DNA of 64,000 nt from Parachlamydiaceae bacterium (GTDB lineage Bacteria; Chlamydiota; Chlamydiia; Chlamydiales; Parachlamydiaceae). The notes under the pieces are model-generated. The model saw nothing but the letters and a program-made list of their open reading frames with translations. It was not told the DNA's origin and did not search any database. Below, in pieces: positions 45,126 through 46,918 of the stretch. The position numbers were made by a program, and so were the translations under genes. The stretch covers positions 1 to 64,000 of the forward strand of contig JBEPVN010000002.1 of NCBI GenBank assembly GCA_041691015.1, written 5' to 3'. Within the stretch, counting starts at the first letter, position 1. Each line of letters opens with the position of its first letter.

Positions 45126-46406
45126 TTAGAGCAATCTGAGGCTAGCATGGACTAGAGGCAGCTGCTCCCAGCTTGTGGTGTTGTGGCACGATTTGAAGTC
45201 TCTCTTCATGTGCCAGTGAGAACTTGTTCCCATAGCCCCAAAAAAGATTTTATTCTTACCGAATTTTTTATTCAATTCGTCCACTGCATGCATCAAAGCC
45301 TTACGTTTTTCATTTACCGGCTTTAAGAATAGGTCCGGAACAATATCTTTTTCTTCGCATAAATCCAAAAGAATGATTCCGCATTTTTTATACGCTTGAT
45401 TTGGTTTGAAAATGCTTTTTAAGCACTTCTTTGCAGCTGTGATGATTTCAGATGTATCGTTAGTCGGTACTTCAAAAGCCTTCGTGGAATTGAATTGAAG
45501 ACGATTAAATTCATGGGATTTTATCTGATGCGTTTCTAAAAAAACATAAATTGCTTTTGCAAAACTGTTTTGTTTTCTAAGTTTGACAGAAGCCCTTGCA
45601 GCGTACGTTGAAAGAGCTTCTGCAATTTCTGATTCTTCAGTTAAAAAATGCCCGAACGAGCGCGAGCTTGTAATATTTTTTTTGGATGCAGCTTCCTCAA
45701 AATCCAAACAGGAAAAGCCCTGCAGTTCTAAAAACATTCGCTCCCCTACAACCCCCATTTTTTTTCTGATAAATGTGACGTCGGAAGAAATAAAATCGTA
45801 AACGGTATAAATTCCTATGCCGTTTAATCTTGCTTTAAGGTTAAAACCAATTCCCCACACCTCTCCAATAGGATATTTTTTAAAGATCTCTTCCCTAAAA
45901 CTTTTTAAACTTAAATCAAAAACAATTTTTTTGGATTTTTTGGCTAAATTATTAGCTACTTTTGCCAAAGTTTTGGTTGGCCCTATTCCTACGGAAATCG
46001 GAATGCCTACCCATCTTTTAACAGTATTTCTTAAAATATGCGCAATGGCACAAATTTCTTCCGAAGTCATAATGGACGGATATTTCAAAAAAGTTTCATC
46101 AATGGAATAAATTTGCATTTCAGGAGCCATGCTGCCCAAAACATTCATTACCCTCCTTGAGATATCCCCATAAAGCTCATAGTTGGAAGAATAAATGATG
46201 ATCTTGGATCGCTTGCAAAAAGACTCAATCTTAAAAAAAGGCTCTCCCATTTTGATGCCAAGGGCTTTAACTTCTTCAGACCTTGCAATTACGCATCCGT
46301 CATTATTGGAAAGAACAAGGACCGGTTTATTTTCAAGCCGCGGATTTAAAAGCCTCTCACAAGAAACATAAAAATTATTGCAATCTGCTAAAATAAAGTG
46401 GCTCAT
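45126..46406 (-). CDS. umuC: Y-family translesion DNA polymerase (UmuC/DinB-like)
   Basis: N-terminal FILADCNNFYVSCE...(catalytic Asp; UmuC-type SCE rather than DinB AS.E) and SIDE palm motif (YSIDETF); start ATG at 46406 overlaps the umuD-like stop (ATGA). Confidence 0.8.
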   Translation of the reverse strand: MSHFILADCNNFYVSCERLLNPRLENKPVLVLSNNDGCVIARSEEVKALGIKMGEPFFKIESFCKRSKIIIYSSNYELYGDISRRVMNVLGSMAPEMQIYSIDETFLKYPSIMTSEEICAIAHILRNTVKRWVGIPISVGIGPTKTLAKVANNLAKKSKKIVFDLSLKSFREEIFKKYPIGEVWGIGFNLKARLNGIGIYTVYDFISSDVTFIRKKMGVVGERMFLELQGFSCLDFEEAASKKNITSSRSFGHFLTEESEIAEALSTYAARASVKLRKQNSFAKAIYVFLETHQIKSHEFNRLQFNSTKAFEVPTNDTSEIITAAKKCLKSIFKPNQAYKKCGIILLDLCEEKDIVPDLFLKPVNEKRKALMHAVDELNKKFGKNKIFFGAMGTSSHWHMKRDFKSCHNTTSWEQLPLVHASLRLL

Positions 46407-46918
46407 AGATGATGGATCACATTTGTGACAACACCCCAAAACACAAGTTCCATCTCTTCTGTGATATCTATCGAAGGATAATCATCATTTTCTGCTACAA
46501 GTTCTATTTTGTTTTGTGAGCGACTCAATCTTTTGACCGTAAGCTCCCCGTTAACGCTTGCAATCACAATCTTGCCATGAGATGGCTCGATACTGCGATC
46601 AACAATTAAGATATCGTTATGATGGATGCCTGCTTTAATCATCGATGAGCCGGACACCTTAAGAAAAAATGTCGCCGATGGATGTTTGATCAGCAATTCA
46701 TTTAAGTCTAGCCTATCTTCAATATAGTCATCTGCAGGCGATGGAAAGCCTGCTGAAACTGTATGCTGATAAAAGGGCAATAGATAACATTTGTTATGAA
46801 TGAATTTCATGACAGAATCAATTTCAGAGACAGGAATGCGAATGGCTTTTGTCTCTACACCAAATTTGCCGCTGCCCTTTGGTCTTCCGGAGCCTTTTCT
46901 AATTCCACCAGAACCCAT
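46403..46918 (-). CDS. umuD: S24 peptidase, UmuD-like (LexA-type self-cleaving C-terminal domain without a LexA-type DNA-binding domain)
   Basis: Ser-Lys dyad context (VSGSSMIKAGI...GELTVKRL), Gly-rich 30-aa N-terminus; 171 aa; immediately upstream of, and translationally coupled to, the Y-family polymerase. Confidence 0.7.
   Translation of the reverse strand: MGSGGIRKGSGRPKGSGKFGVETKAIRIPVSEIDSVMKFIHNKCYLLPFYQHTVSAGFPSPADDYIEDRLDLNELLIKHPSATFFLKVSGSSMIKAGIHHNDILIVDRSIEPSHGKIVIASVNGELTVKRLSRSQNKIELVAENDDYPSIDITEEMELVFWGVVTNVIHHL

Follow-up and report, generated by a model that had tools for sequence, protein, structure and literature searches.

A umuD-umuC pair of an environmental chlamydia with a UmuDAb-like N-terminal head and a matching operator candidate, a possible self-repressed Pol V cassette

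We examined a pair of overlapping genes, umuD and umuC, in a 64,000-nucleotide stretch of a Parachlamydiaceae bacterium genome (assembly GCA_041691015.1, contig JBEPVN010000002.1, positions 1 to 64,000 of the forward strand; hereafter, the window), in which two minus-strand open reading frames (ORFs) fill positions 45126-46918. We propose, with a probability of roughly 0.6, that the pair is a functional, long-resident, self-repressed, RecA-inducible, and LexA-independent DNA polymerase V (Pol V) cassette of Parachlamydiaceae-like environmental chlamydiae. The point of reference is UmuDAb of Acinetobacter, which represses umuDC genes and whose self-cleavage relieves this repression (PMC11332147, PMC4807011). 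Because the window UmuD has a head of the UmuDAb type and its gene is preceded by a matching operator candidate, DNA damage probably induces the pair by a route that does not involve LexA. The evidence comprises the identities of the two genes, the conservation of catalytic and cleavage residues, the homology of the head, the conservation and position of a palindrome upstream of umuD, and the co-occurrence of head motif and palindrome across loci (Table 1).

An intact umuD-umuC module

The 3' end of umuD reads ...CAT CTA TGA, and the ATG embedded in it (46406-46404) opens umuC, the two genes sharing a 4-bp ATGA at 46403-46406 provided that this ATG is the umuC start. The public protein P0001, with 426 amino acids (aa) from ATG 46406, agrees with that start, and an exact look-up among public proteins of the 437-aa ORF that begins at TTG 46439, the start chosen by the ORF lister, returned no match, the 426-aa ATG version being the public one; the TTG is probably not the real start. 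With umuD directly upstream of umuC and overlapping it, the pair has the translationally coupled layout of a Pol V operon, and the same gene order is found at the loci of relatives. A Shine-Dalgarno sequence, AAGGAGG, precedes umuD at 46924-46930.

In addition to DUF4113, the window UmuC matches Pfam IMS (132 bits) and IMS_C (72 bits). Its best model by more than 200 bits is the NCBIfam UmuC model NF002955, which scores about twice as high as any DNA polymerase IV (Pol IV) model; the best of ten Pol IV models reaches 183.5 bits against a cut-off of 381. The protein is 39% identical to Escherichia coli UmuC, and in the alignment of the two the catalytic residues D8, D103, and E104 and the steric-gate residue Y13 are all kept, as are W398 and a TTSW block; we take the first four to be D6, D101, E102, and Y11 of the E. 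coli protein, respectively. DUF4113 is the part that sets UmuC apart from DinB, and the extreme C-terminus of UmuC contacts UmuD' (PMC12926913).

An earlier reading of this DNA, made from the letters without database searches (the sequence-only reading), had described a umuDC module with an ATGA overlap and a polymerase carrying the UmuC-type SCE N-terminal motif. Both descriptions hold: the ORFs, the UmuD and UmuC family matches, and the overlap were all found, and the motif is present as FYVSCE. We are highly confident that the pair, taken on its Pol V identity alone, is an intact translesion module of the Pol V type.

The catalytic core of UmuD

The window UmuD passes the cut-off of the NCBIfam UmuD model NF007621 (171.1 bits against 110), matches Pfam Peptidase_S24 with 113 bits, and scores 167 bits on the PHROG family phrog_811, "UmuD-like," against 41 bits for a CI-like repressor. 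The LexA and HumD models of NCBIfam remain below their cut-offs, the LexA model TIGR00498 giving 84 bits against 110.95 and covering only residues 54-168, and the Pfam domain LexA_DNA_bind has no match in the protein. The top match among PDB structures is E. coli UmuD (8gmt, E 1.6e-33; also 1umu), whose residues 14-135 align with residues 46-168 of the window protein. Both an S24 Ser/Lys dyad and an Ala/Cys-Gly cleavage site followed by FPSPA, the sequence hallmarks of UmuD, are found, and A56, G57, Ser92, and Lys129 are invariant in alignments of homologs. By this likeness, the window UmuD would be cleaved at A56-G57 on stimulation by RecA filaments.

An N-terminal head related to that of UmuDAb

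Relative to the 139 residues of E. coli UmuD, the window UmuD has a surplus of 32 at its N-terminus. The region is highly conserved in alignments, with the pattern M..GG.R.G.GRP.G.GKFG..TKA.R.P.S followed by a helix, and G4, G5, R7, G11, R12, T23, and P29 are invariant in 57 chlamydial and Acinetobacter UmuD sequences. An AlphaFold2 model of the UmuD monomer places a helix at residues 30-41 (predicted local distance difference test [pLDDT] 57-74). Searches of the N-terminal 56-86 residues of UmuD against Pfam, NCBIfam, and PHROGs returned no family and no curated DNA-binding domain. Two structural readings that were tried, a ribbon-helix-helix for TKAIRIP plus the helix and an AT-hook for GRP, were set aside as guesses without support.

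The relation to UmuDAb was established through P0369, a 203-aa protein from a cluster named from an Acinetobacter sp. metagenome-assembled genome (MAG), which was found by a search of cluster representatives followed by a cluster look-up. P0369 fits all of the published UmuDAb positions, E24, K40, A83-G84, N100, S119, G124, and K156 (landmarks from PMC4807011, PMC11332147, and PMC13062779), and its head motif reads HGGARVNAGRK..FNEPTKVIRVPES, or in full HGGARVNAGRKAQFNEPTKVIRVPESQVHIIKNWL. In BLASTP, residues 4-41 of the window UmuD align with residues 10-46 of this UmuDAb orthologue. The mutations that derepress UmuDAb, E24K and K40P/R41P (PMC4807011), fall within the segment that the two proteins have in common, and the modeled helix 30-41 corresponds to "helix 3" of UmuDAb, residues 36-46 (PMC4807011). 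The region of the UmuDAb repression domain around E24, K40, and R41 is thus matched in the window UmuD by homology, and, as judged from the alignments, the head is homologous to the UmuDAb N-terminal domain. This makes doubtful the view of the sequence-only reading that the S24 protein has no DNA-binding domain. When a UmuD from an A. baumannii plasmid was used as the query of the homolog search, only Acinetobacter proteins of 165-197 aa were returned, UmuDAb not among them.

Outside chlamydiae, the head motif occurs in Nitrotoga, on Legionella plasmids (e.g., pLPL) and Acinetobacter plasmids, in MAGs labeled Akkermansiaceae and Rickettsiales, and in a single-cell assembly labeled Thiothrix. 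It is present in at least 46 of the 150 best representatives of clusters at 50% identity, 8 with a short linker, as in the window UmuD, and 38 with a long one. In Protochlamydia amoebophila UWE25 (L002:9380-10020), UmuD has 143 aa and the motif is deleted.

A conserved palindrome at the putative umuD promoter

The candidate operator TTGATTAGTGTGCAATAATCAA lies 26 nt upstream of the umuD ATG and is the sole match to this palindrome in the window. It is kept in 13 loci of the chlamydial clade, 13-30 nt upstream of the umuD ATG, with the consensus TTGATTATTGTACAATAATCAA; almost every one of these loci has a single copy. In aligned chlamydial upstream regions, a TTGnnn recurs 17-18 nt upstream of an (A/G)ATAAT, which coincides with palindrome positions 14-19, a placement by which the palindrome would cover the spacer and the -10 box. 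The promoter assignment is suggested by this conservation; a generic sigma-70 scan did not call the promoter of umuD, because its -35 element fits at only three of six positions.

The UmuDAb operator is TTGA-N4-GTnAC-N4-TCAA (PMC11332147), and the chlamydial candidate operator has a similar layout: its arms are TTGA, its AT-rich spacers are 4 nt long, and its core reads GTAC or GTGC. Comparable palindromes precede umuD genes with the head motif on plasmids of A. baumannii (TTGATTATGTTACATATTCAA), L. pneumophila (pLPL; ATGATATTTGTACGTAAATCAA), and L. adelaidensis (TAATTAGTGTACACTAATTA). A position weight matrix (PWM) built from the chlamydial operator sites was run on the upstream regions of non-chlamydial umuD loci at a threshold of >= 12, and an operator-like site was detected in 12/22 non-redundant loci that bear the motif compared with 1/97 that do not; most of the other motif-bearing loci have the palindrome with one-base variants of spacing. 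In P. amoebophila UWE25, the promoter position homologous to the palindrome reads TTAGATTTTCCTATCAGAATTAA, and no site exceeds the PWM threshold. UWE25 has lost both the head motif and the operator and is a natural control.

Several other arrangements were seen at these loci. UWE25 has a different inverted repeat, AATCACTA-N9-TAGTGATT, nearer to the umuD ATG (L002:9380-10020). In three loci labeled Actinomarina or Actinomycetota (L008, L011, and L013), a motif-bearing umuD and umuC point away from each other, with the palindrome GAATACTGTACACTATTC in the short intergenic region between them, which recalls the divergent umuDAb-ddrR promoter; the same palindrome stands upstream of motif-bearing umuD in L109 and L110 (match regions of the five loci near 9400-10000 or 6000). 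A second operator-like site, TTGATTAGTGTGCGTTTATCAG (PWM score 21), is found in a metagenomic contig of one chlamydial relative at L087:18796-18817, inside gyrB and ~9 kb from umuDC, and may be due to chance.

Table 1. Coordinates of features of the umuD-umuC locus within the window
Feature	Coordinates	Strand	Basis
umuD, 171 aa; self-cleaving S24 peptidase, Pol V accessory subunit, with N-terminal extension	46403..46918	-	NF007621, 171 bits
umuC, 426 aa from ATG 46406; Y-family polymerase, Pol V catalytic subunit	45126..46406	-	Pfam/NCBIfam; public protein P0001
DUF4113 C-terminal region of UmuC, residues ~370-419	45150..45299	-	PF13438, 64 bits vs. cut-off 24
N-terminal extension of UmuD, residues 1-45; proposed DNA-binding head	46784..46918	-	Motif GGxRxGxGRPxGxGKFGxxTKAxRxP, then helix
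Predicted RecA-stimulated self-cleavage site, Ala56-Gly57 codons	46748..46753	-	VSA/GFPSPA vs. VQC/GFPSPA at E. coli C24/G25
Catalytic Ser92 codon (E. coli UmuD Ser60)	46643..46645	-	Alignment to 8gmt and 1umu
Catalytic Lys129 codon (E. coli UmuD Lys97)	46532..46534	-	Alignment to 1umu, TVKRL/TVKKL block
Candidate 22-bp palindromic operator TTGATTAGTGTGCAATAATCAA, TTGA-N14-TCAA, central GTGC core	46945..46966	.	Conservation upstream of umuD
Putative promoter: -35 TTGTTT (46972-46977), 18-nt spacer, -10 AATAAT (46948-46953) within the operator	46948..46977	-	Conservation

A proposed self-repressed switch

In the mechanism that we propose, UmuD would be made as a 171-aa precursor, the first ~45 residues of which form a small DNA-binding head of the UmuDAb kind. 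Dimerized via its S24 domain, it would bind the 22-bp palindrome over its own -10 box and keep the operon off. After DNA damage, RecA filaments would prompt the Ser92/Lys129 dyad to cut UmuD itself between Ala56 and Gly57; this would free the DNA-binding heads and derepress the operon, and the same cut would give UmuD' (Gly57-Leu171), which as UmuD'2 with UmuC and RecA would make up the active lesion-bypass polymerase. DNA binding, repression, RecA-dependent cleavage, and polymerase activity are thus all predicted properties of the window proteins. Each half of the mechanism has a precedent in Acinetobacter: repression of umuDC genes by UmuDAb, which self-cleavage relieves, and the ability of full-length extended UmuDs of A. 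baumannii, among them UmuDAb, to sustain mutagenesis once they have been cleaved (PMC13062779).

A number of points weigh against this proposal. Full repression by UmuDAb depends on a corepressor, DdrR, and dimerization contributes more to the DNA binding of UmuDAb than do its N-terminal helices (PMC11332147); ddrR is Acinetobacter-specific (PMC7273328), and no small divergent ddrR-like ORF lies upstream of the window umuD, where 79 bp are followed by a co-directional 541-aa ORF. The window UmuD is without the first predicted helix and the ~24-residue linker of UmuDAb, and in the monomer model its head, of only ~45 residues, shows a lone helix at modest confidence with residues 1-29 unstructured. 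The operator has 22 bp and a 6-bp core of the GT(G/A)CA type (TGTGCA/TGTACA), not 21 bp with GTnAC. The association between motif and operator (Fisher p = 8e-10) is overstated by its p-value because the loci are not phylogenetically independent. On the side of the polymerase, UmuC does not reach the cut-off of NF002955 (388.9 bits against 431), and its clamp-binding pentapeptide is atypical, VPDLF aligning with QLNLF of E. coli; of the beta-clamp motif QL[SD]LF, only the DLF portion is conserved in the chlamydial clade. The shorter head and linker, the 22-bp rather than 21-bp operator, and the lack of ddrR are real differences from UmuDAb, and the probability given above for the proposal as a whole takes them into account.

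Residence in the chlamydial genome

According to the sequence-only reading, umuDC is part of a probable horizontally acquired island (45.1-50.2 kb) that looks more AT-rich than its neighbors. The composition of the two genes is instead typical of the window. GC content and GC content at third codon positions (GC3) are 0.369 and 0.361 for umuC and 0.405 and 0.360 for umuD, compared with 0.381 +/- 0.030 and 0.321 +/- 0.043 for a reference of 47 window genes; GC3 has z = +0.9 for umuC and umuD alike, and the leave-one-out codon-usage likelihoods of the two genes (z = -0.24 and -0.96) are within one standard deviation. The only AT-rich member beside umuDC is the 541-aa ORF at 46998-48623 (GC 0.317), and several other lineage-specific ORFs of the window are as AT-rich.

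The surroundings are those of a core chromosomal region, with gapA, rpoA, secY, ribosomal protein genes, fmt, lpxA, lpxC, lnt, rsmB, dnaE, hisS, an FKBP/Mip-like gene, trmL, a thioredoxin gene, and trhO on one side and with a SNF2 helicase gene, pheT, and ndk on the other. No integrase or transposase was found in the window; the sole window tRNA (153-235) is not beside the umuDC block, and no meaningful direct repeats flank it. The usual marks of a genomic island or integrative and conjugative element (ICE), which are deviant composition, an integrase or transposase, and a tRNA or repeat boundary, are therefore absent here. The window does not contain recA.

The homologs give a consistent picture. 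More than 100 UmuC clusters are 50-87% identical to the window protein and more than 100 clusters of 171-aa UmuD are 68-84% identical to its partner, and no cluster with a name comes from outside Parachlamydia, Parachlamydiaceae, and Protochlamydia (P. amoebophila). In a neighbor-joining tree of 149 UmuC sequences with 100 bootstraps, the chlamydial sequences form one clade (bootstrap 78/100, or 100/100 when the metagenomic sequence L117 is included), and identity to the window UmuC is at least 50% inside this clade and at most 47% for every other sequence examined. A profile search of genome contigs with the UmuC alignment, in which no chlamydial genome was among the matches listed (at least 600), was used as the outgroup set only. 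Instead of nesting with plasmid or ICE homologs, as the island proposal would have it, the window UmuC falls among the chlamydial sequences. More than 5000 plasmid UmuC matches were obtained, of which the best, from a Legionella antarctica plasmid, is only 45.6% identical; the best plasmid UmuD match has 64% identity over residues 23-169. In one 1.34-Mb chlamydial contig, an IS607/IS605-type element composed of a MerR-resolvase ORF and an OrfB/TnpB ORF sits between an intact umuD and umuC (L088:10571-11862).

Gene order is less informative. A tblastn search of the window flanking proteins against 169 fetched loci identified no shared neighbors, and trhO, the 541-aa ORF, and the histidine phosphatase gene are near none of the other umuDC loci; the pair is beside tex in UWE25, near mfd in P. 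acanthamoebae, and beside gyrBA-tmk-holB in two other chlamydial contigs. Since there are no shared neighbors, synteny does not reveal a junction at which the block is present or absent, and it lends an island no support. Vertical descent is thus favored by the single chlamydial clade, the family-wide presence, and the native codon usage, and not by the locus position, which differs among relatives. Extensive rearrangement is usual in these genomes. Given the non-syntenic locus and the related cassettes that plasmids of Legionella and Acinetobacter carry, it is plausible that the pair was transferred long ago and has since been inherited vertically and rearranged, and we regard umuDC as native to amoeba-associated chlamydiae, with long residence and extensive genome rearrangement.

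The premise that Chlamydiae have no umuDC fares unevenly. Public Parachlamydia and Protochlamydia genomes already annotate the genes; the premise holds only for the pathogenic Chlamydiaceae, which are not known to carry them.

Alternative explanations

In one competing account, the pair forms a conventional Pol V operon: UmuD serves as an accessory subunit only, another repressor encoded elsewhere (LexA or an unknown one) acts on the palindrome, and the extension is a longer pro-peptide, for example, a degradation tag or a RecA-contact tag. E. coli-type UmuD has no regulatory role, the window extension is short, mostly unstructured in the monomer model, and free of any curated DNA-binding domain detectable with Pfam or NCBIfam, and A. 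baumannii operonic UmuDs with similar extensions have been described only as UmuDAb-repressed Pol V subunits (PMC13062779). However, the motif and the palindrome are found paired in different phyla and also on plasmids, for which a host-specific repressor acting in trans is unlikely, both are lost in UWE25, and the motif is homologous to the very region of UmuDAb where mutations abolish repression; on balance, we consider this account unlikely, while taking it seriously. The converse extreme, in which the extended UmuD is a general LexA substitute over a wider chlamydial DNA-damage regulon, seems improbable. Pathogenic Chlamydiae are not known to have LexA, and one relative has the second operator-like site (L087 at 18796) described above. 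UmuDAb, with DdrR, affects ~159 genes (PMC13062779), but its direct repression is mainly limited to error-prone polymerase genes (PMC8565304); further, the 64-kb window contains the operator only once, most relatives likewise have a single site per locus, and the second L087 site sits within gyrB.

Recent acquisition of the 45.1-50.2 kb block from a plasmid or ICE is largely refuted and, in our judgment, highly improbable. The different position of umuDC in each relative examined, the plasmid-borne related cassettes of Legionella, Acinetobacter, and Synechocystis, and the AT-rich, apparently unique 541-aa ORF next door would fit such an event, but the native composition and codon usage of the pair, the missing mobility genes, tRNA, and repeats, and the gap between the best plasmid UmuC and the 50-87% identity inside a well-supported chlamydial clade do not. 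Finally, the pair could be a DinB/Pol IV polymerase with the remnant of a phage repressor, given that the Pfam domains IMS and Peptidase_S24 are common to both families. We rejected this assignment, to which we give almost no chance: Pol IV models reach at most 184 bits against cut-offs of 256-399, compared with 389 bits for the UmuC model, DUF4113 is present, and the partner exceeds the cut-off of the UmuD model and scores far higher on the UmuD-like phrog_811 (167 bits) than on the CI-like repressor family (41 bits). The self-repressed Pol V cassette thus remains our preferred reading.

Other features of the window

The 541-aa ORF at 46998-48623 (minus strand) adjoins umuD upstream, is co-directional with it, and is Lys-rich; it has a sub-threshold C-terminal HTH_3 match (19.8 bits against 23), no PHROG match, and no counterpart beside any other umuDC locus. 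An "F-box region" had been named as one boundary of the supposed island, but the ORFs at 53.4-57.7 kb gave no F-box match in Pfam at E <= 1e-3. The four ORFs at 53416-57691 (186-440 aa) have no significant Pfam family, one has a sub-threshold match that is not F-box, and two are AT-rich (GC 0.32-0.33).

The order dnaE, MFS transporter gene, hisS, FKBP/Mip, trmL, and thioredoxin gene at 32577-44000 presumably resembles CT545-CT539 of C. trachomatis; if so, synteny with Chlamydiaceae breaks off where the trhO-umuDC block starts. Between the FKBP/Mip-like gene and trmL, the intergenic DNA has a 32-nt inverted repeat with 94% complementarity and a 27-nt loop (42334-42424) and a perfect 18-nt hairpin (42139-42179); terminators, or else a small structured element, are the probable explanation. 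Flanked by the MFS transporter gene and hisS, a 603-aa ORF (37963-39774, plus strand) matches no Pfam family at E <= 1e-3, and an ORF at 15809-16942 (minus strand) has a weak, sub-threshold match to the chlamydial histone-like family HC2 (23.6 bits against 40) and an unusually low GC3 of 0.196.

Implications

That environmental chlamydiae have umuDC was already apparent from the public annotation of Parachlamydia and Protochlamydia genomes. In a literature search of incomplete coverage, we found no paper on umuDC or an SOS-like response in environmental chlamydiae and none on UmuDAb-like proteins outside of Acinetobacter. A recent survey reported a depletion of Y-family polymerases in the chlamydial phylum (PMC12926913). 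Published work treats UmuDAb, both as a repressor and in its dual role, and its operator as specific to Acinetobacter or Moraxellaceae (PMC11332147, PMC13062779, PMC8565304), with control of error-prone polymerases by S24 proteins reported only for Streptococcaceae and Moraxellaceae and the operator considered unique to Acinetobacter (PMC11332147, PMC8565304).

Sequences of the kind discussed here occur in environmental chlamydiae, on Legionella and Acinetobacter plasmids, in Nitrotoga, and in MAGs labeled Akkermansiaceae and Rickettsiales. We suggest, tentatively and with somewhat less than even confidence, that the UmuDAb principle is a widespread, portable, LexA-independent "mini-SOS" cassette rather than an Acinetobacter invention and that it is perhaps the sole damage-inducible switch in chlamydiae, giving them inducible mutagenesis. 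If this is true, obligate intracellular chlamydiae of amoebae retain an inducible, mutagenic lesion-bypass polymerase, and UmuDAb is one branch of a broad family. The motif-operator pairs across phyla would then be a ready set for learning how an uncurated head of ~45 residues reads DNA, with the UWE25 variant, from which head and operator are lost, serving as a natural control.

Comparison with known systems

The window UmuD shares with UmuDAb the S24 domain, an Ala-Gly cleavage site, and the Ser/Lys dyad, and the N-terminal motifs of the two are homologous, GGxRxxxGR...(E)xTKxxRxPxS followed by a helix. The palindrome at the putative umuD promoter resembles the UmuDAb operator in its TTGA/TCAA arms and AT-rich spacers and, more loosely, in its GTAC-like core. 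UmuDAb is operonic with umuC in some Acinetobacter species (PMC4807011), as is the window umuD, and combines the roles of repressor and Pol V subunit (PMC13062779), a pairing that we propose, by analogy, for the window UmuD. The two differ in length (171 aa for the window protein, 203 for UmuDAb), in the addition at the N-terminus (a 32-residue extension rather than a 59-residue extra domain), and in the position of the cleavage site (A56-G57 rather than A83-G84); in contrast to the Acinetobacter system, the window locus has no divergent ddrR gene, and its host is an obligate intracellular chlamydia.

With E. coli UmuD'2C, the pair has in common the overlap of umuD and umuC, the cleavage site, the Ser/Lys dyad, the Y-family residues, and DUF4113, whereas E. 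coli UmuD has 139 aa without the N-terminal motif and its promoter carries a LexA box, CTGT-N8-ACAG, instead of the window palindrome. The likeness to LexA lies in the self-cleaving S24 C-terminal domain and, if the analogy holds, in the logic of a dimeric repressor whose inactivation is stimulated by RecA; the winged-helix DNA-binding domain of LexA is absent from the window UmuD.

Closer in size are UmuD0636 and UmuD1174 of A. baumannii, with 164 aa upward and cleavage at A47/48-G48/49 (PMC13062779), and the 168-aa UmuD of Legionella pLPL. No function has been assigned to the N-terminal extension of the operonic A. baumannii UmuDs (PMC13062779). Unlike the window pair, these operonic A. baumannii and Legionella UmuDs are plasmid-borne or reside in genomes with UmuDAb as master repressor. 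Like the window UmuD, however, the UmuDs of pLPL and of A. baumannii plasmids have the N-terminal motif and a short linker. In each case, umuC directly follows umuD, and a palindrome of the TTGA...GTAC...TCAA type precedes umuD. The UmuDs of Legionella plasmids are 55-64% identical to the window UmuD, and the Acinetobacter UmuDs of the 192-aa type are 41-48% identical to it.

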